A stretch of 58,940 nt of DNA, from IMG/VR virus record IMGVR_UViG_3300050821_002544. One strand, written 5' to 3'. This DNA comes from a virus (lineage: Duplodnaviria > Heunggongvirae > Uroviricota > Caudoviricetes). Shown in pieces: positions 2,428 through 56,057 of this stretch; within the stretch, counting starts at the first letter, position 1; every line of letters begins with the position of its first letter. Both the position numbers and the translations under genes were made by a program. The notes beneath the pieces are model-generated. The model did no database searches, was not told where the DNA came from, and saw only the letters and a list, made by a program, of their open reading frames with translations.

Positions 2428-3351
2428 TTACTCCTGCATGTCAGGAGTTGCAAAAGGATTATCTTCACTAAAGTTAATAATACTCTGACCTTCGGCTTCT
2501 AGCTGTGCATTGTTATCTAAGTTTCTATTAACATCATCAATGATTGCAGTAGATGCAAGAACATATGATGCACGAGAATTTTGTCCTACTATAGCCGTAT
2601 TCACATGGAATATACCATTGATATGCTTTAATGTGAGAGTAAGTGAAGGCAAATCCCATGAGATTACTGTTGCATTCGCACCAGGTTGATATACTAATTC
2701 GCCCTCAGTAAATGCTCCTGCACCATTGGCAACCATAGTAAAGTTGAATGCAGGAATTACGGAATTAATAGTATCATCAAGATCGGCAACGCCGGTAACA
2801 ATACGTTCATTAGAATAGCGAAACTTCTCACATACCATAGAATAACCATATATCTTAGAATTACCAAATGTATAGAATAGATGTTCTTCATCACAGAATT
2901 TGATTTCAAATAGCGCATGAAAATTCTTCATCCATAATAGATCACCCTCGCGTGGTCTGAATAGAATTTTAACTGCATTCTGATTAATATATTGTGTTGT
3001 TATATCTGTTTGATGCGGATAATTACTAGGAGATTCAGCAGCAACAGAGTTTTGAAAGGCACGATTCATAATAAGAAATCGTGCCTGTTTCTTTACTTCT
3101 AATCCAAACTTAGAAAATAATTCTCCACCTTCGAAATTGTCCACTGACTGCACATAGACCTCTACAGGATATGAGCGAGTAAATTTGCTGGTAGGGTCTT
3201 CTCCAAACAATAGATCAATCTGTGATTCAGAATCACGAACTAGATAAAGCGCATCAATACCATAGGTCTGAACGCACTCATGGAGTAAATCTTCATAGAG
3301 TCGTTGTTCTGCCTTATCATTGAAATTGTTGAAGTACTTATTAGTTGCCAC
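2428..3351 (-). CDS. gp14: Neck protein gp14
   Basis: MATNKYFN start (GTG at 3351), YGIDALYL.R, FSKFGLE, RPREGDLLW, FEIKF, CEKFRYSNE, NPF C-terminus; T4 synteny 13-14-15. Confidence 0.92.
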   Translation of the reverse strand: MATNKYFNNFNDKAEQRLYEDLLHECVQTYGIDALYLVRDSESQIDLLFGEDPTSKFTRSYPVEVYVQSVDNFEGGELFSKFGLEVKKQARFLIMNRAFQNSVAAESPSNYPHQTDITTQYINQNAVKILFRPREGDLLWMKNFHALFEIKFCDEEHLFYTFGNSKIYGYSMVCEKFRYSNERIVTGVADLDDTINSVIPAFNFTMVANGAGAFTEGELVYQPGANATVISWDLPSLTLTLKHINGIFHVNTAIVGQNSRASYVLASTAIIDDVNRNLDNNAQLEAEGQSIINFSEDNPFATPDMQE

Positions 3352-3472
3352 TTTTCTTCTCATTATCCTTGGTAGGAACGAATCCTTTTGCCACAAATCC
3401 TTTATTCTTTAGGACGCGCATCTTCTCTATTGGCTTGATTACTTCTTTTAAGAATTGTCTGAAAGTCTTCAT
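3341..3472 (-). CDS. 43-aa peptide with a capsid-targeting-like N-terminus (MKTFRQFLKEVIKPIEKMRVLKNKGFVAKGFVPTKDNEKKSGN)
   Basis: Manually translated; fills the gp13-gp14 gap and its stop overlaps the gp14 start region; N-terminus resembles T4 internal-protein CTS MKTYQEFIAE. Confidence 0.6.
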   Translation of the reverse strand: MKTFRQFLKEVIKPIEKMRVLKNKGFVAKGFVPTKDNEKKSGN

Positions 3473-3478
3473 GATTCT

Positions 3479-4234
3479 TTAACCTATAATGAAGCTAGGT
3501 GGTGCTTCCCAATGATCGCGCAATTCTGTATATAATTCTGCTTTCTCTTGAATTGCTTCGGCATAAATTCCTTGACCATCCAATTCTACGCCACCAGGAA
3601 GTTTTACACCCTTGAATTTCTTAAGATTATTTCCCCATTGTTCCTTGAACATGGCAGTTGTATAACGTAATAGCCATGGATCATTCCAGAAACCAGTAGA
3701 ATTACCTAGAATCTGATATGATTCAAACAATAGCCAACTACCAGATACTACTTGATTACCCCAATTTAACATAGGTTTCAGGATATTAGTATAGCGATTA
3801 TATGTAAACGGTACTTCTCCAAAGAATAACATCTGAAGAGTCTGAATATGTTCATTTGCTAATTCATAATATACGTAATCCGCAGATGTGAAATCATATA
3901 ATTCATTCAGACGAATTTGATAGTTGATATCAAAGATATTAAAGTTTGAGGTACCGGTAGAGTTAATAGAATCACCGGCAATAGGATAGATATTATTAAC
4001 TCCGATAACTGTATTAGGTAATGTCACATATTGATTAGTAACATCATTTGCAGTTAATTGATAGGCAATGTAAATTTTCTGAGTAGCATCCACGTGGAAC
4101 TGTTGGAATAGACTGATAGCATCATCAATACGATCATCCAATTGGTCATCATCGACATTAATGGTAATGACGGGAAAGCCAAGTTTACGTAGACAATAAT
4201 CCTTAAGATTTGCTCTGGAAGTTACAATTGCCAT
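3479..4234 (-). CDS. gp13: Neck protein gp13
   Basis: LKDYCLRKLGFPVITINVDDDQLDDRIDDA, WLLRYTTAMFKEQWG.NL.KF.GV.LPGGV.LDG motifs. Confidence 0.95.
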   Translation of the reverse strand: MAIVTSRANLKDYCLRKLGFPVITINVDDDQLDDRIDDAISLFQQFHVDATQKIYIAYQLTANDVTNQYVTLPNTVIGVNNIYPIAGDSINSTGTSNFNIFDINYQIRLNELYDFTSADYVYYELANEHIQTLQMLFFGEVPFTYNRYTNILKPMLNWGNQVVSGSWLLFESYQILGNSTGFWNDPWLLRYTTAMFKEQWGNNLKKFKGVKLPGGVELDGQGIYAEAIQEKAELYTELRDHWEAPPSFIIG

Positions 4235-7200: not shown

Positions 7201-8642
7201 GATCCATTGGTTGTATTAGATACAATGTTCTTAAATTCCCAACCCAAATATGAAACGCCGTATTGATCTGCCCAATTGGTCATGAATGTAATATGGGGTT
7301 CACCTACGTTTGCCGCAGGACCAGAGTTTCCACCATCTTCTGTAATAACAATAGGATACCCTGCTGTCAATACTGCTTGTGCAGCATTCATAACGGCGAC
7401 AGTACCAGAACCTACAACAGCATGAGGATAGAATGTATTTCCAGCATATGGATATGTACCATTAGTATATGGATGCCATGCTGCGGCAAAGTTATTGACA
7501 GGATCAGTAATTATAACATTTGCCCATTGAGAGAAATCGCTAGTAAAACCATTAGAGCCAATCAAGATCAAATTATTGGCACCGGTTGCGCGTACTGCAT
7601 TTGTTAATTGCTGATATCCAGCAATATTCCATGTAGATGTAATAGTTCCGGAATTGAATGAACTGCCTTGATATGTATTAGCATAAGGAATCTGAGTAAG
7701 AGTTCCACCATTGATTAATGCTGTATAGACATTCGCTCCACCATTAGCGGAAACAAGTGTACCAGATGCAGAATTAAGGAATGGCTCATTGAATAGTTCA
7801 AATATAACGCCATTAAAATTAATACCAGAAATAGGGGTTGCATTGGTGCCAAATGTTTGTGCAATAGATGTCCAGAATGGAATAGATGTATCTGCGTCTG
7901 CCATAGGCGTCTGTGTCAATGGCATTAATTGATGAGTCACACCACCAATAGTAACATTAGGAGCAGTCCAATGAAGATCAAGAATTACATAACAACCATT
8001 AGATTGCGCAGTTTTGATCTGTTGAATAACATTTGCTTTGTATGTTCCATTGAAATCTGCATTTGCAGAGAATGCCCAGGCAGTACCTGCCGTATTAGGT
8101 TCCCAACATATCAAACCTTGCCATGATGCAGAATTTAATGGAATACGAACAACATTAGGTTTCCATGTAAAGTAATAACCCCAATTTGGAGCACTTCCAT
8201 ACCATGGAGCAAACCCCTGAGCTTCTGATGCTTCAAGACCTTGCATGTTAGCACCACGTAATTGTAGAACATAACCAGCAGAGTTAACAAGTTGTGAGCC
8301 ATTAGCGCTTATAACACCATCATACGTTCCAGGAGATGAGATTGCAACAGTGTACACAATCCCACCAGAAAAAACATTATAGGTTGGGAAGGCACCTACG
8401 GGCGAAGAAATGGTATATGTATAGGTGTTTGTAGAAACATTATAGCTAAATGTCACATTCGCTGCCAATACCGTGATATTGCTACTATTATTGTTAGACG
8501 TTACATTATATGTAATAGTATTGGTATTAGTGTAATTAACATTAATATTTTCACTAGGAATCGCTACCGATAATACATTACCTGATGTATTAGAGGATAG
8601 TGCAACATTTACTGTTTGTTGTGGAATTTGATAAATTGGCAT
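4290..8642 (-). CDS. Multidomain glycoside hydrolase: GH5 catalytic domain, 2 IPT/TIG-like, chitobiase C-terminal/Fn3-associated, GH16-like, Fn3, CBM-like C-terminus
   Basis: GH5 motifs LRGAN, VVRIPLN, ILDLHW, FELFNEP (acid/base), WHPY, VITEDG (nucleophile); IPT-like INSLTPSS...FTMTVTGNNF twice; TIYYTTDGTTPT; GH16-type EIDVHE; ATGYNIYRS...YAYYVSTVN. Confidence 0.85.
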   Translation of the reverse strand: MPIYQIPQQTVNVALSSNTSGNVLSVAIPSENINVNYTNTNTITYNVTSNNNSSNITVLAANVTFSYNVSTNTYTYTISSPVGAFPTYNVFSGGIVYTVAISSPGTYDGVISANGSQLVNSAGYVLQLRGANMQGLEASEAQGFAPWYGSAPNWGYYFTWKPNVVRIPLNSASWQGLICWEPNTAGTAWAFSANADFNGTYKANVIQQIKTAQSNGCYVILDLHWTAPNVTIGGVTHQLMPLTQTPMADADTSIPFWTSIAQTFGTNATPISGINFNGVIFELFNEPFLNSASGTLVSANGGANVYTALINGGTLTQIPYANTYQGSSFNSGTITSTWNIAGYQQLTNAVRATGANNLILIGSNGFTSDFSQWANVIITDPVNNFAAAWHPYTNGTYPYAGNTFYPHAVVGSGTVAVMNAAQAVLTAGYPIVITEDGGNSGPAANVGEPHITFMTNWADQYGVSYLGWEFKNIVSNTTNGSFSGGSTELQATGNIPTIGFGTVLYNWMAYHGLPIAHINSLTPSSVSVGNGGFTMTVTGNNFLNTSIVSFNNTNLSTTFTNSTSLLANVTSGLLGTISTANVLITDPGVAANSSNATFTIAAAGAPTISSLAPSSCNTGNGGFTMTVTGTNFNNTANVQWNGANLVTSFVNTGSVTAIVGSTLLGNVIVANVDVQCNTGTSGNATFSVNSVPTATPTFSVATGNYNIAQRVSISCATSGSTIYYTTDGTTPTTASTVYTGTLNVPTTQTIQAIATAPGFAQSADGSATYTITLPSIPPGAANLGFTVAQFNFAPQLSDIVPPNIQGTGNENAYAFPARQPYSTTRNTDWTNPALATEVNGVLSLNNTGGGGQNTVGALFMQSQLSQAGKYGYLVMANGIYLQIQFALSTSNTDHWETMYIMPQEHVNGGANYCEIDVHEGNEGGGNTGNSMFSSFISWVTSLPLSNVHIIGTAGQCSCNTPTLPIGPATMSNGGAININEVSTGAGNVGSTYPGPTAVGTGYHITNVSVSGNLTLFTLVTAANAAITTTAGVPTGMTFCYFMGGGQAKGADDNSFNSPNPVIDHTKFNTYAFSYDPGTMTAKYYINDFLNLTVNTAITDIYGVVLDSSVSDYHYFPIIIPQAHAGNVPYSMYISNLQAWIPPAGGTLAAPNNVQVLYQGQTSNSQSTANSAWFQPSLPNTMVIQFDTVAGATGYNIYRSFNGGAATLLAANVAAGNGANQKYTDNTAINCVGFQPAPPPQFAAANSYAYYVSTVNALGEGSKSTQFSWWLYQTQSGTTSGGVLDIGGLHQELSYASTITYGGSIGASGPCIVVAAQQFGAWLMALGNSGCQYNLWSGAFNFLSFDVWVTSNNTFNLTPHVRTVGGDTLDDLFNATGGNFSYNFNVTQLNQWVTIKIPLSTLRKDYRNSTAPNGAFSNGSFIIQSSLYKMDFQPQTSPATFGLRNYVLTVT

Positions 8643-9528: not shown

Positions 9529-12500
9529 TTAATTCGTAAATATAGAGAAGTCTAGCGAAGTTGCTGCTGCATTGAAACTTACTGCGAATCTAGAATTAGA
9601 TGCACCATTCGCTTGCGCGCCACCGAATAATAGATAATTGGCATTTGCAACTCTTACGTTTGCATCATAGCTAACCATATGAGCAGCAGTATTATATGTT
9701 ATATTTGCCGCACCACCAAATGATCCATTGTTGTTAAATTGAATCTGACCATTGGCACCGCCAGGAACGCCAGTCGCATTATTCGCAAGATTATATGCAT
9801 TTGCTGCAAGAGCAAGCGCAGAGTTAGCAGAATTATAAGCAAGATTTGCTTGTCCATATGCATTATTAGCTTGTCCTGTGACATCAAATCCACCATTAAT
9901 AAAATATCCATTAGAATAGTAATTACCAGGAATTGTTAATGTTGCAACATTACTAGAATATTGATATACCATTTCACCATTGGTATTACCACCAATTATC
10001 CATGTGTGGCTAACAATAGAAACGCCGTTAGAATTAAAACCATATCCTAGATTGTTTGGCTCTGATAAATTATCAGAAGTTGCTAACCAATGATTATTTG
10101 CACCATCTTTTCCAAGATAGGTTCTTGCATTACGATTAACTACGCCACCGAGACTTACACTTGTCGTACCTACGTATAATCCAACAGAATTTACAGTGGC
10201 GGTAACATTCATGTTGCCTGCAACATTAGCGCCTACTCCACCAAAACCTAATGCCTGACTATTGACTGTAAATCCAACATTAGAATATAGTGTTCCATTG
10301 GCAGATGCAATAACATTTACTGTTGCAGTATTATTAAAGTTTACATTTGCATTGGCAGCGACAATGGTTCCATTGGCATATGTAGAAACAACATTTGCAC
10401 CTGAACCAGATCCACCGCCACCAACACCAATCTGTAATGCAGAGAATATTCTTGCTTCTACAACGTCATTCACATTATTATTGGCTGTGAACTGAAGAAT
10501 ATTATTACCTACTACATTATAGTCAGTACCAGGAATCTGTAATAGACCGTTGACGGTAACAAGTACATATTGTGAACCAGTTACATTTGCAGATAGAGTA
10601 TATACAGACTGATTAGCAGCAGAAGTATAGCTATTGCTTGTAACACTAGTAAATGGAACATTAACAGTGAATGCAATATTTGATTGTGTGGTACCATTTG
10701 CAGTAACAGAAACATTGACCGTATTAGTATTATTAAAGTTTAGATTAGACTTGGCTAGTACTATTGTTCCATTGGCATATGTAGAAACAGTAGTGCCGGT
10801 TGCATTTGCAGCCGCGTAAGCTAGATTTGCCTGACCATATGCTGCATTTGCCTGACCTACAACATCTAATCCTGCTGCTGTAAAGAAAGAACCAGAATTA
10901 ATTGTACTTGTAGAAATAGAAGATACGATAACATTTGTACCAAGTATATTTCCGAAGAATGTATGTGGAGGTAAATCTTGTGGATTGCCATAAGAAATAC
11001 CAGTAATATTACTGGTATTAGCGCCACGCGTTGCTGTCAATACAGCAGCGCCATTTCCTAGATTATCGGCTTTTGCGAAAATATTAAAGTTTCCACCCGT
11101 ACCAGTCGAAATGGACCACATTCTACCATTTGGAGTTGCACCACCAGTAAAGAAATAATATCCGGATGCTGTTGGTCCTGTTGCCATAACATTACCATTG
11201 AAGGTATGTGATGGATTATCGGTGGAATTTCCATATGTTATGGAAGTGATATTTGTAGTTCCATTTGCTCTTGATGCAAAGTATAGATCGTTTCCGTTAC
11301 TTTGATTATCATTACGTGCCTGTATACGGAATGTACCAACAGAATCAACATAACTTGTCCAAAATCCTGTGTTTGCTGGTGGTGATTGTGCCTGCCAAAT
11401 TAATTGTGCGGAACTACTTAGAACTGTAACTATATTTGAACGAACAGTACCAGGAACTATAAGTGTTGGAATTCCACCACCAAATCCTCCACCATAGTTC
11501 ATCTGTTGTGCAATATTACCATTCATATTCCACATGTGAGAAATGATTGTTCCATTAGAAGTGAATCCATATGATAATGAATTTGCCTCACCAGGAGAAC
11601 CATTTACTGCATCATATGTTACGAACCAATGATTATTTGCTGCATCCTTACCTAAGAATGTACGCATACCACGATTTGTTAAGTTACCTAGATTTGCAGA
11701 AGTATTGCCACTAGCAGCAACCCACAATGAAGATGCTACATTCATAACAACTGCATTTACTACAGCAATCGATCCATCAATAGCAATATTTGGAAGATCA
11801 TTATTATTTCCAATAGTAATACCAGAAATATTTGATGTACCATTTGCACGATTAACAACCAGCCATGGATTTACATTTGTCTGTAAATCATTACGTGCCT
11901 CAAAACTTAATAGACCACCAATACCTGCATAAGTATCCCATAATTGGGTATTAGCATTTGCACTTATATTGTTCTGATATAGGATAGGAACGCCAGATGC
12001 AATAGATTCAGAAGGAACAGTTACACCACCAGATAATGTACCACCAGACAATGGTAGGAATTGGGTAGATAGTGCAGCAGTATTTGTTGTTACTGTAATA
12101 TTTGCTTTTGTGCCATTTGCAGATACTGTTATATTGGTTGTGGCAGAATTATTGAATGTAATACCAGATGCATTGGCAACGATAGTACCAGAGTTTTGAG
12201 CAACAAGAATAGAAGCAGATGCCGCATTTGCCACATTGAATGCATTGTTTGCCTGAGTATATGCAAGATTTGCGGTAGTATTAGCAGTATTAGCAAGCGT
12301 GAATGCAGTCTGACCGGTTACATTAGCAGTTCCTGCAAGTGTTACAGCAGATTGTGCAACAGTATTTGCAGTATTTGCCTGAGTGTATGCAGATTGAGCA
12401 ACACCATTTGCAGTATTAGCTTCTGCAAATGCAGAGTTTGCTTGACCATAGGCAAGATTTGCTTGTCCGTATGCAGCATTAGCTTGCCCATATGCAGCAG

Positions 12501-15939: not shown

Positions 15940-16662
15940 TTATTTTCGACTCCATACACTATCTCTATAGTGTGATTCATGTGATGCTCTTTTCTTTCTC
16001 GTAATATCTAATTCTTGTAAATCTTTTTCGGATAATTTATTGTTAGAATAGTCTGTTAACATAGAACCCCTCTTGATTGGTATGACCTGAACCAATGGAG
16101 TTCCTGCTTTTAATATTCCAGTATAATTGGGTTCTGTAAAGAAAAATGGAAAATTAATAAATTCAAAATATCCATCACAATCTACCATCCCTGACATACA
16201 TTGAAATCTTTTATCAATACGATTCATCGGTGGAATAAAAAGAACAGAATAATCTTTAGGAACTTTGATTGCCCACCAATTAAGAAATTTCATTGGAGGT
16301 TTAGGTGAAGTAGGATGCGGAATTTTATCTGTTTCTATTTGATTTCTATTATGATTTTCTATCATTGTTCTATAGAACATAGATTTATATGTGACACCTG
16401 ATGCATCATCATTGGTAATAAATTCTACGTCAGCAGCAAGAGGAATGATATATCCAATACACATTGCATCAAGAAAAGGTGCGCAGCGCTTGATAGTACT
16501 ATTTTCCAATAACTCTTTTTTTTCAATTTTTGGAGGAAGAGATTTATACCATTCTGGCATTAGCTTACGGGCTGAATATGGTTCTGGTATTATACCGAAA
16601 TCTTCGGAATGACATAGAAATTCTATCTCAGGAGTCTTTATAACAGACTTCAAATTAAACAT
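15940..16662 (-). CDS. Conserved phage protein often beside 2OG oxygenases (DUF6065-like, tentative)
   Basis: TIKRCAPFLDAM..GYIIPL, KFLNWWAIKVPKDYSVLFIPPMNR, AGTPLVQVIPIKR. Confidence 0.65.
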   Translation of the reverse strand: MFNLKSVIKTPEIEFLCHSEDFGIIPEPYSARKLMPEWYKSLPPKIEKKELLENSTIKRCAPFLDAMCIGYIIPLAADVEFITNDDASGVTYKSMFYRTMIENHNRNQIETDKIPHPTSPKPPMKFLNWWAIKVPKDYSVLFIPPMNRIDKRFQCMSGMVDCDGYFEFINFPFFFTEPNYTGILKAGTPLVQVIPIKRGSMLTDYSNNKLSEKDLQELDITRKKRASHESHYRDSVWSRK

Positions 16663-16708
16663 AATCTACCTCATAACAAATGTATTATCACATAAGAGTA
16701 TGTAGGTG

Positions 16709-18283
16709 TTATTGATTAAGCCATGAGATAGTTGTTGTACCATTTACAACACCACTTCCTACTGTTACAGTTGCCGCCGCACCTACTGAAACAGATTTTT
16801 GTAGTTTAGTTGTAATATTAGAAAATGGAGCAGAACCAGAAGGATTGCCAGTTCCACCAGTTCCAGCACCAGTTCCGGCAGAACCTATAGACCCAGGATT
16901 TCCATTTGCCCCATTTGCACCGGCAGACCCAGGAGAACCAGCATTTCCTCCCACACCAGCAGTTGCTCCCGCACCATTTGCTCCTGCATTTCCAGGAATA
17001 CCAGCAGAACCAGCATTACCTGGAGCACCAGCCCCACCCGATCCTGATCCGCCTCCACCACCACCAGATGCAGCAGAACCACCGGAATCTTGTCCACCAC
17101 CTAATCCACCTGCGCCACCACCCGGATTTCCGGCAGCACCAGCAGTATTACCACCAGATCCAGAACCAGCAGTACCAGGATTTCCGCCATTTCCAGCGGC
17201 ACCACCACCGCCACCACCACCTGTTCCTGCCCCGCCGCCTACACCCGCTCCACCACCTGTTCCGCCTGCGCCACCGCCCGCTCCACCGTTACCATTTGTA
17301 CCTGATGTTCCTGCATTTCCGGCAGTGCCAGGATTTCCTGCATTACCGGCAGCACCACCATTACCTCTTGCTCCACCGGTACCATTAATACCAGGATTTC
17401 CAGGATTTCCTGCTGTTCCTACATTTCCAGGATTACCGGCAGCACCAGCAGAACCAGCACTTCCGCCTACACCACCAGTAAGATTAACTGGCGTAATAAT
17501 TACTACAGAAGCTAATGCAGTTAATGATGTAGGATTACCGGTAACACCAACATTTCCAGGATTTCCTGCTCCCCCACTTTGACCGGTCCATGATGTTGGC
17601 GCTGCGCCACCACCATTTCCTACAGTAGCACCAGAACCAGCAGCACCAACATTTCCCACCGCACCAGCACTTCCAGTGGTACCAGCAGTACCAGGATTGC
17701 CTGCGCCGCCACCGGTTGCGCCACTTCCTACGCCACCAGCAGAACCGGCGACCCCAGGAGTTCCCGCATTTCCAGGATTACCGGAAACAGGACCAACTCC
17801 ACCAAGTCCACCATTTCCTCCAGTTCCATTTATTGCTCCACCACCAGCATTTCCAGGAAATCCTGCTTCTCCGGGAAATCCTGGAAATTGATCGATAGCA
17901 ACCTTTGCGCTTCCGTGACCACCACCGCCTCCACCACCACCACCAGGACGACCAGTATTGCCAGGAGCACCAGGATTTCCTGCACCGCCTGCGGCACCAC
18001 CGTTACCTCTTACGCCATTAGTTCCAGGATTTCCGGCACCACCTGCATTTCCGGCACCACCCGGATTTCCGGCAGCACCAGCATTACCAGCAATGCCCGC
18101 AGGACCAGCAATTCCGTTGAATCCTGGATTACCTGGATTACCTGGACTACCTGTTCCTCCTGCTCCCGCAACAGTAATTTTACGAACACCAAAAGGAATC
18201 GTCCACGTAGAACCGGCATTAAATGTAACGCTTCCCGCTTGTTTACGAGTAATCTGACGTAGGGCTGTAGCAGCTAAAGGCAT
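16709..18283 (-). CDS. Glycine-rich Gly-X-Y (collagen-/polyglycine-II-like) virion protein
   Basis: Long GNP/GAA/GGA triplet runs framed by WTIPFGVRKITVAGAGG and GTTTISW motifs typical of phage glycine-rich domains. Confidence 0.8.
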   Translation of the reverse strand: MPLAATALRQITRKQAGSVTFNAGSTWTIPFGVRKITVAGAGGTGSPGNPGNPGFNGIAGPAGIAGNAGAAGNPGGAGNAGGAGNPGTNGVRGNGGAAGGAGNPGAPGNTGRPGGGGGGGGGHGSAKVAIDQFPGFPGEAGFPGNAGGGAINGTGGNGGLGGVGPVSGNPGNAGTPGVAGSAGGVGSGATGGGAGNPGTAGTTGSAGAVGNVGAAGSGATVGNGGGAAPTSWTGQSGGAGNPGNVGVTGNPTSLTALASVVIITPVNLTGGVGGSAGSAGAAGNPGNVGTAGNPGNPGINGTGGARGNGGAAGNAGNPGTAGNAGTSGTNGNGGAGGGAGGTGGGAGVGGGAGTGGGGGGGAAGNGGNPGTAGSGSGGNTAGAAGNPGGGAGGLGGGQDSGGSAASGGGGGGSGSGGAGAPGNAGSAGIPGNAGANGAGATAGVGGNAGSPGSAGANGANGNPGSIGSAGTGAGTGGTGNPSGSAPFSNITTKLQKSVSVGAAATVTVGSGVVNGTTTISWLNQ

Positions 18284-39009: not shown

Positions 39010-40158
39010 TTAATATCCGTAGGTATCTATCATTTCTCGCGTTATAATATCAGTTTCGATGAATGAAAGGGTCATGTTAATATGTACAGGCATACCATCC
39101 TGAAATGTTGTATATTGAGAAGAACCCGCATAATTCACAAGAATCTGAGTCAATGCACAAGTAGAGATTTTTGCAATAGCATCATTTTCTTTATTATTAA
39201 AATAAAATGAAATATCAAATTGAGCAGGAGGAATGAAGTATCTTCCATTTCCTTCTGATGAAATTTCTGGTGCTGCATACATTCTAAATGTTTTTATGAT
39301 ATCTAGAATTGCAGCAGATTCTGTTGCCGATCTTGGTTGAAAATCAAATACAAAGTTATAGGTACGATTCTTCGTACCATTGAATATCATTTCTACTTGT
39401 GGATTGATTGCCTGTCCTGTACCTCTCAATGCTAATTGTGTGAAACCAGGACCGGCACCTAATGCCTGTGCTGCTGCACCTACTGCTTCGGCACCTTGGG
39501 CATTGTTAAATAAGGTTGGGCTAAAGTTTTCATTTTTGATCCATGCAACAGCATCATTTTTAAGATTTTCTGCAATATTGCCCACGCCCTGTCCTAATGC
39601 AGCATCTGAACCTGCCTTTCCTAATGCTTCTGTGAGTGATACAGTATTCCAGTCATGTGAGTACTCGGATACTACCGTATCTGGCATATAGATGGCTATT
39701 GCTTTCTTTACGCGCTGTAGCTTAGGCACAAGAATAATCTGTTGACTAATGGCGGCAACAGTACCACTTGCTAATGCCGAACCAGCAACATCCAGACCAG
39801 GAACCGTACCACTAGATATGTCACTCAATGCCTTACGCGTCGCGCCACCACCTGCCGCAGCCGAAGTACTTGCCTGATAGACTCCACCCTGAGAGTTCTT
39901 TAGATCATAATTGGTCTGAGAAGCAGATTGTACATTCGCTACCTGACCACCAGCATTTGATGTATATTTGGAATTAGTAGGTAGATTGATATTGAAAACT
40001 ACATAATGTGGAACATCCTGAGAGCCAACAGTCAAAGGATATCTAGAAGTAGAAAAATCATATGTACTTTGATCTAATGAGGACAAAGCGCCAGTTCCTT
40101 GTGCTTTAGAACTGGCTGTTGGGTTATTTAATACATTGATATCGGAGATAATTCCCAT
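39010..40158 (-). CDS. gp48: Baseplate tail tube cap gp48
   Basis: IAIYMPD, AINPQVEMIFNG...RTYNFVFDFQPRS..ES..I..IIKTFR, P..I.MTLSF.ET. Confidence 0.88.
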   Translation of the reverse strand: MGIISDINVLNNPTASSKAQGTGALSSLDQSTYDFSTSRYPLTVGSQDVPHYVVFNINLPTNSKYTSNAGGQVANVQSASQTNYDLKNSQGGVYQASTSAAAGGGATRKALSDISSGTVPGLDVAGSALASGTVAAISQQIILVPKLQRVKKAIAIYMPDTVVSEYSHDWNTVSLTEALGKAGSDAALGQGVGNIAENLKNDAVAWIKNENFSPTLFNNAQGAEAVGAAAQALGAGPGFTQLALRGTGQAINPQVEMIFNGTKNRTYNFVFDFQPRSATESAAILDIIKTFRMYAAPEISSEGNGRYFIPPAQFDISFYFNNKENDAIAKISTCALTQILVNYAGSSQYTTFQDGMPVHINMTLSFIETDIITREMIDTYGY

Positions 40159-48435: not shown

Positions 48436-48665
48436 GCCAATGTTATATCTGTTTCCTTAATAATCTTAATCTTACCCACAAACTCTACCTGATAACCTAT
48501 TAAGGATTCATCATCGATTTCTTTCTTGTCATTACAAATAATAAACTTAGGAGATTTAGGAACGGCATGTCCTAGTGAGTGAATCCTACCGGCAACTCCA
48601 TTGACGAATACTGACTCACCAATCTTATACTTGTGTTTAAACATATTAACGCTCCTAATAGGCAA
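48432..48665 (-). CDS. Hypothetical protein (SH3/KOW-like)
   Basis: KYKIGESVFV..., probable start MFKHKY. Confidence 0.55.
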   Translation of the reverse strand: MPIRSVNMFKHKYKIGESVFVNGVAGRIHSLGHAVPKSPKFIICNDKKEIDDESLIGYQVEFVGKIKIIKETDITLA

Positions 48666-48693
48666 ATAAAAAGAGGGTCTTGCGACCCTCTTC
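48666..48693 (-). terminator. Rho-independent terminator downstream of the tmRNA gene
   Basis: AAGAGGGTC-GCAA-GACCCTCTT followed by a U-run on the minus strand. Confidence 0.85.
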
Positions 48694-48990
48694 CCGATCC
48701 GTTCTGTTTACAAGAGGATCAAACTCAGTTTAGGCAGCAAGTGCCTGAACAAACGTGTCATCGTTAGATGCAGTTATAGTTTTGCACTGTCACGGTCGTT
48801 ACATACCGGATTGCCTTCAAGTTATTCTACACAGAGTCGATACCAGTTCAAGCCCATCAGAAGCGTTCTTAGCCACCCATTTATGGTGGACAACTATACC
48901 TCCATGGATAGTCGTAAAAACGCTTGTGGTGGACCTGTCGGGATTCGAACCCGAGTGTTCCGTGCCTTTAGTTAAAGGTTAACAATCATT
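48694..48990 (-). ncRNA. ssrA: Circularly permuted (two-piece) tmRNA; tag (A)ASNDDTFVQALAA
   Basis: Minus strand: T-arm TCGGG-TTCGAAT-CCCGA + CAGGTCC-A-CCA (48954-48927) precedes the 5' arm GGGCTTGAACTGGTATCGAC (from 48855); 7-bp acceptor stem with G3-U70; tag ORF GCA TCT AAC GAT GAC ACG TTT GTT CAG GCA CTT GCT GCC TAA (48771-48730); outer limits approximate. Confidence 0.9.
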
Positions 48991-48998
48991 ATCAATAT

Positions 48999-49691
48999 TT
49001 ATCCTTTCTGAAATACTAGCTTCTTATAGCTAAGAAGTCTCTTACGATTAGACGCAAGAATAGGACTAGAAGCAACCGCAGTCATCACGTTCCCTATATC
49101 AGGTTCAATGAACGAATAGGCTTTTCCTCCCACATGTTCAATATCTGCAATAGCAGTATCCAAACCCTTTTGATCTGGAACACCAATCACTGCAAAATAG
49201 AGTTCATCAAAATTCTTAAAAGTAATTTGATTAAAGCCCATCTTCGCAGCAACATGCGCTGCCTGTACCAATTGATACTCAGGAGAAATATCCTGTCTCA
49301 CAAAGATATAAGAATAGTGTCTCTTCTGTTCTTCCTGAGTGATCTTATACTTGTCAAATACATCAGACACAATCTGAGTGAATTGATTCAATTCATCGAC
49401 TGTTTCCAATGGTGAGAAAAGTTGTGCGGGGTCTTTCTTCTGCATCTTGCAAAACCAATGCAAGGATGACAAAAGATTTCTTACTTTCTGCCAGGGTTCG
49501 TTACCGTTATCAAGTTTGTTCTTTCTTGTAATTGGTGTGAATGCACGGCGAATCAATTGATTCGCCGTAACATCCTTTGGTTGGATACTAACCGCATCCA
49601 TTGCCTTATAGATGCACAGTCGCATAACATCATATGCGGTCGTCTTCTTGGCACGTGCCAAGGTTTTATAATCTTCTCTAAAATTCTTCAT
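48999..49691 (-). CDS. Protein with a C-terminal PTH2-like peptidyl-tRNA hydrolase domain
   Basis: YIFVRQDIS...QLVQAAHVA, VIGVPDQKGL, FIEPDIGN.MTAVA..PI pattern of PTH2-family proteins; N-terminal ~120 aa unassigned. Confidence 0.7.
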   Translation of the reverse strand: MKNFREDYKTLARAKKTTAYDVMRLCIYKAMDAVSIQPKDVTANQLIRRAFTPITRKNKLDNGNEPWQKVRNLLSSLHWFCKMQKKDPAQLFSPLETVDELNQFTQIVSDVFDKYKITQEEQKRHYSYIFVRQDISPEYQLVQAAHVAAKMGFNQITFKNFDELYFAVIGVPDQKGLDTAIADIEHVGGKAYSFIEPDIGNVMTAVASSPILASNRKRLLSYKKLVFQKG

Positions 49692-49790
49692 TTTCGTTCT
49701 CTCCGTTAATATGTAATAGTAATCAATAATCGTCTTGACTATTACACACGGAGGACCGTGTACATAATATAATTTCTACGTGTCAGGCTT

Positions 49791-49871
49791 CTACAAACCT
49801 TCGTATTCATCCCAATGCTTTTCATTTCCTATTGGAATGATAGCAATCATACCAGTTTTTTCGTTCTTCAT
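49791..49871 (-). CDS. 26-codon leader ORF (MKNEKTGMIAIIPIGNEKHWDEYEGL, amber stop), in frame with the PTH2-like gene
   Basis: GGAG SD 7 nt before the ATG; ends at TAG; frame continues through a second TAG to ATG 49691 with no TAA/TGA. Confidence 0.6.
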   Translation of the reverse strand: MKNEKTGMIAIIPIGNEKHWDEYEGL

Positions 49872-49887
49872 AATCATTCTCCAAAAT

Positions 49888-49961
49888 TGGTTCCCTAGAC
49901 AGGAATCGAACCCGCTTACAAGAATTTAGAGTTCCCTGCTAAACCAATCAGCTACTAGGGA
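49888..49961 (-). tRNA. Amber suppressor tRNA, anticodon CUA
   Basis: TCCCTAG/CTAGGGA acceptor, A73, CCA encoded; D-stem GCTG/TAGC; anticodon arm GGGAA-CTCTAAA-TTCTT; T-arm GCGGG-TTCGATT-CCTGT. Confidence 0.88.
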
Positions 49962-49969
49962 ATATTCTC

Positions 49970-49977
49970 TATTTATA
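49970..49977 (-). promoter_or_regulatory. Perfect T4 late promoter TATAAATA upstream of the suppressor tRNA
   Basis: Exact consensus 8 nt upstream of the tRNA 5' end. Confidence 0.75.
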
Positions 49978-50428
49978 CTTGTCGTCCATCAAATCGTTTC
50001 TGGGCGGCGAGAGCCGCTTCATCTTCAAATTCAAACGTATCAAGGTTATCACTAAATCGTCCTGGTGGACGATGATAGTCACAATAATCAGTGTAAGAAG
50101 AAGGATCAAAAGAACAATATGGACATTTGCCACCATGTTCTTTTAAGGTCTGTACCATCTTTTTATCTTCACGTTCTTTCTTAACTGATTCTAATTTCAG
50201 AAGCGCATTCTCTTGTGTGATAATCGCTAAGAGCGTAGATTGATCTACAAGTGCAGTATGCCAAACTTTGACACCTCCACCAATTTCATCAGAAATATAA
50301 CAACGACCTTGTTCTGTCGTTTCCCAATATCCGGTACAACCGTTGGGTAAACGGAAATTTCCCTTTTCAGGGATCGCCGGTAAAGTACCTGCTGATAAAT
50401 CTTGCCATTTTACATCATCATAATTCAT
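49973..50428 (-). CDS. Hypothetical protein with a C-terminal CPYC...YCDYH metal-binding motif
   Basis: 151-aa ORF behind a sigma70 promoter. Confidence 0.65.
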   Translation of the reverse strand: MNYDDVKWQDLSAGTLPAIPEKGNFRLPNGCTGYWETTEQGRCYISDEIGGGVKVWHTALVDQSTLLAIITQENALLKLESVKKEREDKKMVQTLKEHGGKCPYCSFDPSSYTDYCDYHRPPGRFSDNLDTFEFEDEAALAAQKRFDGRQV

Positions 50429-51412: not shown

Positions 51413-51805
51413 TTAAATCGCTCTTTCATCTTCACATGAAGCAGGAATACGAATATGCCACGGAGCAGATTCGGCATATTTAACTACTGCCTGTGCATCC
51501 TTGAATGCTTCATTATGCTTCTTATCTACTAACATTACCTGACCATCAGCATATGTGAAAACGGCAGATTCAATCAATGTGCATTGAGTAACAACAATAG
51601 CACTCAACAATACAGATTTAGGAATATTATTCGGTACAGATTCAAGAACACTATTATCAGTATTTTGTTCTCCATCTGTTATAGGCATATTATCAACAAC
51701 CTTAGTTCCTGCTGGAAATGTAATTGTCTTACCATGTTGAATAGGTAACGTAGAAGCACAGCCTGCTAGTACACTCAATCCAATAACTGCAAATAGTTTA
51801 TTCAT
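51413..51805 (-). CDS. Lipoprotein
   Basis: Signal peptide II MNKLFAVIGLSVLAGC with LAGC lipobox. Confidence 0.75.
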   Translation of the reverse strand: MNKLFAVIGLSVLAGCASTLPIQHGKTITFPAGTKVVDNMPITDGEQNTDNSVLESVPNNIPKSVLLSAIVVTQCTLIESAVFTYADGQVMLVDKKHNEAFKDAQAVVKYAESAPWHIRIPASCEDERAI

Positions 51806-52317
51806 AATTTCTTTCTATTCCTCATTTTCTTTAATGACTCTTCTGAGTGCTTTCTTCCAAACATTGGATTGTTTGCACCAATTCTTTTCAACAAATAATC
51901 AGCGTTGCGCATCTTTTCTTTAGATTCATCAGAACGTTTCTTACCAGTATTACCATAATTTGGATTTTCTCTATAACCTTTCTTAGCTGCTTCTGAATAT
52001 CGCCTTCTTGATTCTTCTGTTAGAATCACATTAACAACACCATCACCACCTAAAGTCATATTATATCCGTGTTTATCAACCGTTGATTGACATTCTTGAA
52101 TCCAATATTTCTCTCTTTCAACAGCAAGTTCTTTTGTTAACCCACTATCTAATACGAATAATTCGAAATTATCAGAACCATACTTATCTATAGCTGCCGT
52201 TAAGGCGAACCCTCTTTTATAATGTTCGAACATTCTCATTTCTGGTGACTTTTTAGTCAAACCAACATAACATTTACCATTCACTTTGTTTGTGATCTTA
52301 TACACCGAATAATTCAT
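51802..52317 (-). mobile_element. GIY-YIG (Seg-like) homing endonuclease with NUMOD3 repeats
   Basis: SVYKITNKVNGKCYVGLT, EKYWI, GYNMTLGGDG, GRKHSEESLKKM. Confidence 0.9.
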
Positions 52318-55850: not shown

Positions 55851-56057
55851 CTAAAGCGCTTCCTTGTTGACCGGACTATAAAACCACAATCCATTATGGT
55901 ATGACAGAATACCAATATCACCGAGTTTGACATTATGCGGTTTAGAGATACCCATCAGAATATCAATACCAGAACCATCCGTAATCATCATCTCATTGAC
56001 GATAACACGATCCGGTAGAATCTCTACTACTTCTACCTTTTTATGATTAACCACCAT
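55851..56057 (-). CDS. Hypothetical protein
   Basis: 68-aa ORF overlapping the upstream stop. Confidence 0.55.
   Translation of the reverse strand: MVVNHKKVEVVEILPDRVIVNEMMITDGSGIDILMGISKPHNVKLGDIGILSYHNGLWFYSPVNKEAL

Follow-up and report, generated by a model that had tools for sequence, protein, structure and literature searches.

The 58,940-nt stretch of viral DNA analysed here (IMG/VR record IMGVR_UViG_3300050821_002544; the window) encodes a single transfer RNA (tRNA), whose anticodon, CUA, matches the amber stop codon UAG. Our analysis suggested, with a probability of roughly two in three, that this tRNA is a functional and probably late-transcribed amber suppressor that serves as the key of a self-contained cassette, and that two UAG codons in a short leader open reading frame (ORF) are its selected target. 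The leader precedes a gene whose product has a predicted Pth2 fold, that of the peptidyl-tRNA hydrolases, and the block is closed by a transfer-messenger RNA (tmRNA). The elements lie on the same strand in the following order, with positions given as those of the window:

49970–49977, minus strand: T4-type late-promoter-like motif TATAAATA, 8 nt before tRNA position 1 and overlapping the TAA stop of the upstream ORF
49888–49961, minus strand: tRNA with the anticodon CUA (candidate amber suppressor), 74 nt, class I, with A37 and A38, discriminator A73 and an encoded CCA (ARAGORN and Rfam)
49692–49877, minus strand: leader ORF, with GGAG at 49879–49882 and an ATG at 49877 or 49871, in frame with the downstream gene
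49791–49793, minus strand: gate codon 1 of the leader, TAG followed by A
49776–49778, minus strand: gate codon 2 of the leader, TAG followed by A
49746–49761, minus strand: hairpin of 6 bp with a 4-nt loop (RNAalifold), containing the H-G-P-P codons of the leader (49749–49760)
48999–49691, minus strand: gene for the Pth2-like protein of 230 amino acids (aa), with its own GGAGAG ribosome-binding site (AlphaFold, Foldseek and profile)
48639–49042, minus strand: circularly permuted (two-piece) tmRNA with the tag ASNDDTFVQALAA (ARAGORN), the last element of the block

The leader begins approximately 15 nt past the CCA end of the tRNA, and 197 nt separate the tRNA end from the start of the Pth2-like gene. 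The tmRNA, which shares ∼40 nt with the 3′ end of the Pth2-like ORF, was matched by the Rfam models tmRNA_permuted (109 bits) and beta_tmRNA (106 bits). A permuted tmRNA was located at the same position in the related loci L001, L003, L004, L052, L060, L062 and L089, and the tags of the relatives are similar, ending in ELALAA. Two-piece tmRNAs of aquatic phages are described in the Melnitz paper (PMC9004378), in which a suppressor tRNA is not mentioned.

The association of the tRNA with the Pth2-like gene extended well beyond the window. When the 230-aa protein was searched against IMG/VR, four loci with 44–46% identity were obtained, each of them with an upstream CUA tRNA and a downstream permuted tmRNA. 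A wider set of approximately 56 non-identical loci was collected by a profile-driven IMG/VR scan (38 loci), from Joint Genome Institute (JGI) metagenomes (50 loci) and by tblastn of deposited phages (7 records); these relatives reach down to ∼28% identity and lie on contigs of 1–441 kb. A tRNA with a stop anticodon was identified within the fetched flanks of 2.5–3 kb in 39 loci, always on the strand of the gene (35 with CUA, two with CUA in an odd loop and two with UCA), and some of the loci without one are contigs cut near the gene. The linked tRNA was mostly the sole tRNA nearby, and in the genomes G001 and G002 it was far from the main tRNA array: of the 38 other tRNAs of G001, nearly all are clustered at 109–119 kb, and the CUA tRNA stands alone at 95 kb. 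Homologues were also found in the cultured phages ME3, Arash, XacN1 and RAS14. The linked tRNA of Acinetobacter phage ME3 is annotated as 'tRNA-OTHER, anticodon CTA', that of Salmonella phage Arash (L085, OQ632216; L085:4307–4381) was deposited as tRNA-Phe, and XacN1 carries two CUA tRNAs elsewhere in its genome (PMC5852040). The preliminary description of the window had considered that the CUA anticodon might be an assembly error; this is excluded, as the same anticodon recurs at this genomic position in no fewer than 35 independent assemblies.

The second line of evidence is the presence of in-frame stop codons, here called gates, at the start of the Pth2-like gene or in its leader. Approximately 17 non-identical short or fusion forms of the gene open with ATG, one to six codons and TAG. 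The conserved strand Y-I-F-V-R-Q-D follows the TAG after 4–16 codons in the short forms and after 185 codons in the XacN1 and RAS14 fusions, and most short forms have no start codon after the TAG. The gene opens with M-H-TAG in L071 and M-L-TAG in Arash, in both directly before the first conserved strand, with M-T-TAG in ME3, and with M-K-TAG (ATG-AAG-TAG) in XacN1 and RAS14, between which the residues following the TAG are conserved. The gate lies upstream of the annotated starts of XacN1 ORF364 and ME3_195, and the Arash record splits the gene into gp85c and gp84c ('peptidyl-tRNA hydrolase') around the M-L-TAG start. An early in-frame TAG is also present in L083, with no ATG nearby. As a control, 261 open frames of at least 90 codons from the same loci were examined; 17 of them had an ATG one to five codons before the TAG that bounds them on the 5′ side, and approximately ten of these 17 were the Pth2-like genes themselves. 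The equivalent counts for TGA and TAA were 6 and 7.

The long forms, which include the window gene, carry the gate in the leader as two stops. The window leader reads D-E-Y-E-G-L-TAG-K-P-D-T-TAG-K-L-Y-Y-V-H-G-P-P-C-V-I-V, and approximately 12 other long-form loci share the pattern TAG-x-P-D-T-TAG-...-Y-x-(R/C)-G-P-P at a fixed distance of ∼95–102 nt before the Pth2-like start. Among the leaders, the Gly-Pro-Pro codons vary between GGT, GGA and GGG and between CCT, CCA and CCG, changes that leave the peptide of the TAG frame intact but alter the product of the other frame, in some loci the frame in which the enzyme is read. Since these codons vary synonymously only in the TAG frame, selection acts on a peptide that is made only if both TAGs are read. 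The residues before gate codon 1 are also conserved, as D-(E/D)-Y-E-G-(L/F)-TAG, in the window (49794–49811, minus strand), in L051 and L055 and in the short form L112, and this end of the nascent peptide may adjust the balance between release and suppression. The ORF downstream of the tRNA in the relatives showed at best a faint similarity to the N-terminus of the window leader. The only hairpin identified by RNAalifold in the region from the leader to the gene start is the one at 49746–49761, with weak covariation.

A further argument for a decoding role of the tRNA in this setting is the covariation of anticodon and gate. In L072, a short form with a UCA tRNA 63 nt upstream, the gene opens with AGGAGG-N7-ATG-GAA-CAT-TGA, i.e., M-E-H-TGA. 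In L089, a long form with a tmRNA and a UCA tRNA, the leader reads M-L-I-R-I-TGA-I-P-D-N-TGA-I-L-L-Y-Y-G-H-G-P-P; both gate codons changed with the anticodon, and the surrounding peptide was kept. Across the 28 non-identical loci with a known tRNA and gate, CUA is combined with TAG in 26 and UCA with TGA in two, with no mixed case (exact p ∼0.003, approximate owing to shared ancestry). The covariation argues for the reading of the gate as the selected job of the tRNA. The context of the gates is also distinctive, as 38 of 43 gate codons are followed by a purine (A in 26), and A follows 13 of 40 genuine TAG terminators (p 0.015). A 3′ purine context favours suppression, as known from Escherichia coli genetics. 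Taken together, the linkage, the co-orientation, the conserved gates and the match between stop and anticodon were established by comparing the sequences of these loci; the expression, charging and suppressor activity of the tRNA and the stalling of ribosomes at HGPP are inferred.

These observations also bear on a reading in which the gate stops genuinely terminate a mini-ORF or leader, in the style of the lambda bar minigenes, with the tRNA linked to the enzyme in some other way, for instance as its substrate or cofactor. M-X-stop is the classic minigene layout tied to peptidyl-tRNA drop-off and Pth, lambda bar minigenes load the cell with peptidyl-tRNA, and the window gene does have a start of its own. 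With true terminators, however, the enzyme could not be made from most short forms, which lack a later start and reach their first strand 4–16 codons on. The conservation of the post-TAG residues between XacN1 and RAS14, the synonymous-site selection on the leader peptide past the second stop and the match of anticodon and stop in 28 of 28 cases likewise argue for read-through, and we consider the minigene explanation quite improbable.

Several loci depart from the common arrangement. In L067 and L068, the anticodon loop of a tRNA at 2221–2297 comprises 8 nt (ARAGORN 'ccta'), and frame changes break up the long-form Pth2-like region at 3001–3641; these may represent a decaying cassette or a four-base decoder. 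In L071 (3387–3537), two tRNA-like genes whose anticodon loops are irregular (ARAGORN 'ta' and 'ttta') lie between the gated Pth2-like gene and the CUA tRNA. The Pth2-like ORFs of L064 (1554–1916) and L065 (3001–3390) stop at a TAG, and the in-frame sequence beyond it is conserved (SAEQIFKLVEKYKK versus SAKQIYKIAQKEMEN), so that the TAG in these loci may mark a C-terminal read-through extension and not an N-terminal gate. In L083 (3025–3330, on a 441-kb contig), a TAG is located within the Pth2-like domain, in a column that is mostly K or R in the homologues, with another TAG upstream; this huge phage may be truly amber-recoded.

The tRNA itself has the characteristics of a regular elongator. 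ARAGORN called it as the only tRNA in the window (49888–49961, minus strand, anticodon CTA), and Rfam RF00005 matched it from end to end (51.8 bits against a cut-off of 29, E-value 2.9e-8), so the preliminary description was right in presenting it as a genuine 74-nt CUA tRNA with an encoded CCA. The cloverleaf has stems of 7, 4, 5 and 5 bp with standard D- and T-loops; the 7-bp acceptor stem starts with the pairs U1-A72, C2-G71 and C3-G70 and carries the discriminator A73, the D-loop contains GG, the variable region has 4 nt and the T-loop reads UUCGAUU. The 7-nt anticodon loop, CU-CUA-AA, with U33 and a purine at position 37, is the same in most of 23 related tRNAs. A37 and A38 are near-invariant among these 23, as in tRNAs that read codons starting with U. 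The tRNAs of the four closest IMG/VR relatives are only 63–78% identical, and the differences in their stems are compensatory, while the loop CUCUAAA and the CCA are invariant. The conserved in-frame UAG targets and the covariation of anticodon and stop give indirect support to a tRNA that is probably expressed, aminoacylated and able to insert at UAG.

The label tRNA-Pyl, which ARAGORN assigned from the anticodon alone, was rejected on structure. A tRNA-Pyl typically has a 6-bp anticodon stem, a 3-nt variable loop and a small D-loop without GG, and it is accompanied by pylS and pylBCD genes; the window tRNA has a 5-bp anticodon stem, a 4-nt variable region, a GG-containing D-loop and a normal T-loop. 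The amino acid was approached in two ways. The preliminary description had read U1-A72 as Gln-like, an argument that fails on comparison, as the 1:72 pair (G-C, U-A or C-G) and the discriminator (A, G or U) vary freely among the 23 CUA tRNAs; no acceptor identity position is conserved among them, and the D-arm is not Gln-like. Assignment by nearest neighbour against 156 co-resident phage tRNAs also failed, the best matches being scattered over Arg, Lys, Thr, Pro and Cys at 0.64–0.74 identity. Gln is the prior favourite as the inserted residue solely because Borges et al. (bioRxiv 10.1101/2021.08.26.457843) observed no other amino acid for TAG in phages.

Late transcription of the tRNA and promoter activity of TATAAATA are plausible from the sequence context. 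The preliminary description had reported a perfect late promoter 8 nt upstream; the motif is indeed there, and CTAAATA occurs 6–11 nt before the CUA tRNA in the four closest relatives that bear the module, but the exact 8-mer is not above chance, with two occurrences per strand in 58.9 kb against approximately 5–6 expected from base composition. The core TAAATA was found 36 times on the gene strand and 16 times on the other.

A non-decoding role was also considered, in which the tRNA is a decoy for a host anticodon nuclease, an mRNA processing signal or an inert mutant copy. Phage tRNAs that counter tRNA-cleaving defences are known, and in all four close relatives the tRNA lies at the 5′ end of the transcript, right before a ribosome-binding site, where processing by RNase P or RNase Z could set the end of the mRNA. 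Against these roles, CUA, A37, A38 and the encoded CCA are conserved while the rest of the molecule drifts, and the anticodon is changed to UCA in precisely those loci that have TGA gates; this explanation is extremely unlikely.

Further CUA tRNAs were noted in two other loci. A 360-kb phage contig (L006:183–661) carries tRNA-Lys(UUU), tRNA(CUA) and a tRNA with the ochre-reading anticodon UUA side by side, and in L005 a GOLLD RNA (7938–8365; Rfam 204 bits) lies ∼2 kb from a CUA tRNA at 10315–10390. The anticodon arms of both CUA tRNAs are identical to that of the window tRNA.

The analysis of stop codon usage revealed that the suppressor tRNA resides in a phage with the standard code. Greedy ORF calling in the window gave 57 genes with a coding density of 96% under code 11, and their stops are TAA in 40, TGA in 11 and TAG in 6 cases; ORFs of up to 1798 aa are open, and no long ORF is interrupted by TAG. 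The census was extended genome-wide on the relative G001 (98% complete, 166.7 kb), which has 244 ORFs, a density of 92% under code 11, 34 TAG stops and no unexplained gaps. TAG thus terminates 10–14% of the genes in the window and G001 and is not depleted. Neither genome is amber-recoded (code 15), as the preliminary description had maintained for the window, and G001 still keeps its CUA tRNA. The TAG stops that it listed (1922, 18285, 23984, 57605 and 49791) are all present, together with one at 55851, but 49791 is gate codon 1 and no ordinary gene end.

The same census is informative on whether the suppressor acts more generally, as a late read-through factor on UAG ends of phage and host genes genome-wide or as a disturbance of host termination, with the gate incidental or one of many targets. 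A suppressor cannot tell one UAG from another, 6 of 57 genes in the window and 34 of 244 in G001 end in TAG, and a tmRNA in the block fits more run-off at mRNA ends. Nonetheless, reading through each stop type in turn gave TAG-open extensions no more commonly than TGA- or TAA-open ones in the window, and the extensions after TAG stops, in the window and G001, are short and of the same length as those after other stops. A scan of the window for other gates of the form Shine-Dalgarno–ATG–(1–8 codons)–TAG gave none that was credible, and no conserved extension was detected there; a 5′ extension of the ORF at 39010–40158 through two TAGs was rejected since it translates to junk. The XacN1 authors likewise found nothing after read-through of 18 amber stops (PMC5852040). 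General read-through also leaves the linkage to a single family and the covariation of stop and anticodon unexplained, and we regard it as unlikely as the main function. Of the roles put forward in the preliminary description, selective read-through thus emerged as the most likely, with the cis-linked leader before the Pth2-like gene as its target, and disruption of host termination and lysis-gene targets received no support: the extensions of TAG-terminated genes are ordinary, no other early in-frame TAG follows a ribosome-binding site in the window, and the genome-wide census that it called for, run on G001, gave no distinctive read-through extensions. Some general read-through may still occur, as a suppressor cannot avoid other UAGs, and the adjoining tmRNA may cope with it.

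It is very unlikely, too, that the tRNA is an evolutionary way-station without a stable function, either a step towards TAG recoding or a relic of it. Such a path was proposed by Borges et al. (bioRxiv 10.1101/2021.08.26.457843), who describe suppressor tRNAs among standard-code relatives of recoded phages, and L083 has a TAG inside its Pth2-like domain. Against a transitional state, standard-code phages retain the cassette where the identity of the partner proteins has fallen to 28–45%, and the anticodon loop is conserved; TAG remains in use as a stop in 10–14% of genes, and G001 is dense and without unexplained gaps under code 11.

The partner protein was characterised by profile and structure comparison. 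The 230-aa product consists of a helical N-terminal domain, an extra 115 aa, and a C-terminal domain at approximately residues 117–230 (49002–49343). Sequence searches gave no Pfam match even at an E-value of 10 (no PF01981), no PHROG match and none from a 4-sequence profile against the PDB. A profile of 23 C-terminal domain sequences, by comparison, identified the PDB peptidyl-tRNA hydrolase 24bt_A (E-value 0.0048), aligning the family motif F-V-R-x-D-L...V-Q-x-x-H-A to I-R-T-D-L...V-Q-S-C-H-A of Pth2. An earlier AlphaFold model of the whole protein was mediocre, with a predicted local distance difference test (pLDDT) score of 67.8 and weak Pth2 matches; the model of the domain from the 23-sequence alignment reached a pLDDT of 94.3. 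The top 13 Foldseek matches of the latter are all members of the Pth2 family (E-value ≤8e-5), among them 1q7s, with a template modelling (TM) score of 0.77 and a root-mean-square deviation of 2.3 Å, as well as 1wn2, 2zv3, 3erj, 1rlk and 1xty. Since all top matches are Pth2 structures, the modelled C-terminal domain is assigned to the Pth2 fold. The R, D, Q and H of the N-terminal motif and an acidic E-P-D motif are conserved in the family. Compared with archaeal and eukaryotic Pth2 (human Bit1/PTRH2), the fold is the same (TM 0.69–0.77) and R-x-D-L...V-Q-x-x-H-A aligns; the family differs in the absence of a PF01981 match, in the replacement of the 'GK' Lys and in the N-terminal domain, which is helical in the window form and HD-like in XacN1 and RAS14. 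In the latter two (L086, XacN1 ORF364, and L087), the fusion partner of the Pth2-like domain is an N-terminal region that carries the motifs H-D-I-G-K-P and H-D-M and looks like an HD phosphohydrolase. A Glu-tRNA amidotransferase-like gene and a valyl-tRNA synthetase are among the neighbours of the fusion genes.

Several points weigh against the cassette as proposed, and all of its support is computational. Locus counts are inflated by shared ancestry, the UCA cases are only two, and approximately 20 relatives have no recognised gate pattern, some of them also without a tRNA in the fetched span. The window gene has a good GGAGAG site and an ATG of its own, so that it could be made without read-through, and any dependence would be regulatory; the enzyme requires read-through in most short forms and not in the window. 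The leader is in frame with the gene in the window and G001, but it is closed by TGA or TAA before the gene in L046, L050 and L047 and out of frame in L051, which means that the coupling would generally be indirect. The consensus fold of the region from the leader to the gene start revealed no conserved anti-Shine-Dalgarno pairing. In the profile alignment, the Lys of the Pth2 'GK' corresponds to Gln in the family, and hydrolase activity is therefore not assured. Finally, a suppressor that reads two UAGs would also extend the 10–14% of phage genes and the many host genes that end in TAG, a cost that is left unexplained.

The proposed cassette would operate as follows. The tRNA would outcompete release factor 1 (RF1) at both leader UAGs, and the ribosome would then translate the Y-x-(R/H)-G-P-P segment and the hairpin, located ∼50 nt upstream of the ribosome-binding site that serves the next gene. 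This might raise synthesis of the Pth2-fold protein through ribosome pausing and mRNA remodelling or, in the window, through direct in-frame continuation. In phages with short forms, the coupling would be simpler, with the stop at codon 3–8 of the enzyme gene itself. In either form, the cassette would tie the output of an enzyme resembling peptidyl- or aminoacyl-tRNA hydrolases to the efficiency of stop read-through, and the tmRNA behind it would deal with ribosomes running off messages. Candidate reasons for tying a Pth2-like enzyme to suppression are a feedback like that of release factor 2 (RF2), a sensor of RF1 activity or tRNA integrity, and a response to tRNA-acylating toxins. These can be combined, tentatively and with a probability that we hold to be low, in a homeostatic sensor of tRNA and hydrolase: the gate would gauge suppression against RF1 release, or the charging and 3′-end integrity of the tRNA pool, and the enzyme would act back on the aminoacyl or peptidyl ester of the suppressor or on toxin-blocked tRNAs (tRNA-acetylating GNATs), with an RF2-like feedback keeping read-through tolerable and the phage tmRNA clearing run-off ribosomes.

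Several known systems share parts of this design. In phage stop recoding (code 15, TAG to Gln, and code 4, TGA to Trp; crAss-like, Lak and Jade phages with a 'code-change module'; Borges et al., bioRxiv 10.1101/2021.08.26.457843), a phage tRNA also reads a stop, and stop-bearing genes are made only when the tRNA is active; both concepts treat stop codons as regulators of translation. Recoded phages have many structural and lysis genes with in-frame stops, whereas the phages studied here keep to the standard code, with the adjacent gene or leader as the sole conserved target; the partner is a Pth2-fold protein in the window cassette and a synthetase or release factor in recoded phages. The orphan suppressor tRNAs of standard-code cultured phages (XacN1, PMC5852040; Stenotrophomonas phage Summit, PMC9022506; ME3) are of the same kind and occur in the same kind of genome. 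The XacN1 and Summit papers found no target for them and examined extensions past gene ends; the gate described here is at the gene start.

The prfB gene, which encodes RF2, resembles the cassette in that an early in-frame stop in a termination-related gene makes its expression depend on stop recognition; it relies on a +1 frameshift and responds to its own product, whereas here a dedicated co-encoded tRNA would bypass the stop, and feedback by the enzyme is hypothetical. Leader peptides such as SecM, the RAPP-type ApdA, ApdP and ApcA, trpL and ermCL are alike in that the translation state of a short upstream ORF controls the next gene, as is proposed here. R-A-P-P and R-A-G-P are arrest cores, and the (R/H)-G-P-P near the leader end resembles them; by this analogy, (R/H)GPP could hypothetically act as a ribosome-arrest peptide. 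The window differs from RAPP-type leaders in having HGPP in place of RAPP and an overlapping hairpin, and its input would be the suppression of two stops; we know of no leader that uses such an input. A full-text search of the literature found nothing on a pairing of tRNA and Pth2 or on the gate, only reports of targetless tRNAs and the recoding literature.

A conserved, adjacent and anticodon-matched target would turn suppressor tRNAs that seemed targetless, or mere stepping stones, into a defined regulatory device, and it would explain the persistence of orphan suppressor tRNAs in unrecoded phages. To this the window adds a T4-like genome, a long two-domain enzyme, the double-stop leader, the terminal tmRNA and, in the leader architecture, a second switch of anticodon and gate. 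The gate is directly testable in the cultured phages ME3, Arash, XacN1 and RAS14. Database records would also be corrected, as the Pth2-like genes are truncated (XacN1 and ME3) or split (Arash) and the Arash CUA tRNA is mislabelled. The cassette may further offer a natural stop-codon switch for synthetic biology, portable and orthogonal if the sensor reading is true.

The genome that hosts the cassette is that of a T4-like myovirus, as indicated by gp32, a gp5-type lysozyme hub protein and a GIY-YIG/NUMOD3 endonuclease. Its gp32 is 47–59% identical to that of marine cyanophages and the Methylophilales phage Melnitz, and no close relative of the window turned up among deposited phages at the nucleotide level. 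Two genes flank the cassette on its upstream side:

49973–50428, minus strand: conserved upstream ORF of 151 aa, a synteny anchor that precedes the tRNA in relatives too
51802–52317, minus strand: GIY-YIG and NUMOD3 homing endonuclease gene, ∼2 kb upstream of the cassette

The 151-aa ORF had no Pfam or PHROG match; it shares 42–49% identity with its counterparts in L001 and L004 and 23% with that in L003. Elsewhere in the window, the guanine-cytosine (GC) content jumps to 0.46 at 16001–18000, with a strong negative GC skew, over a 524-aa ORF (16709–18283), and the rest of the window has a GC content of 35–39%.

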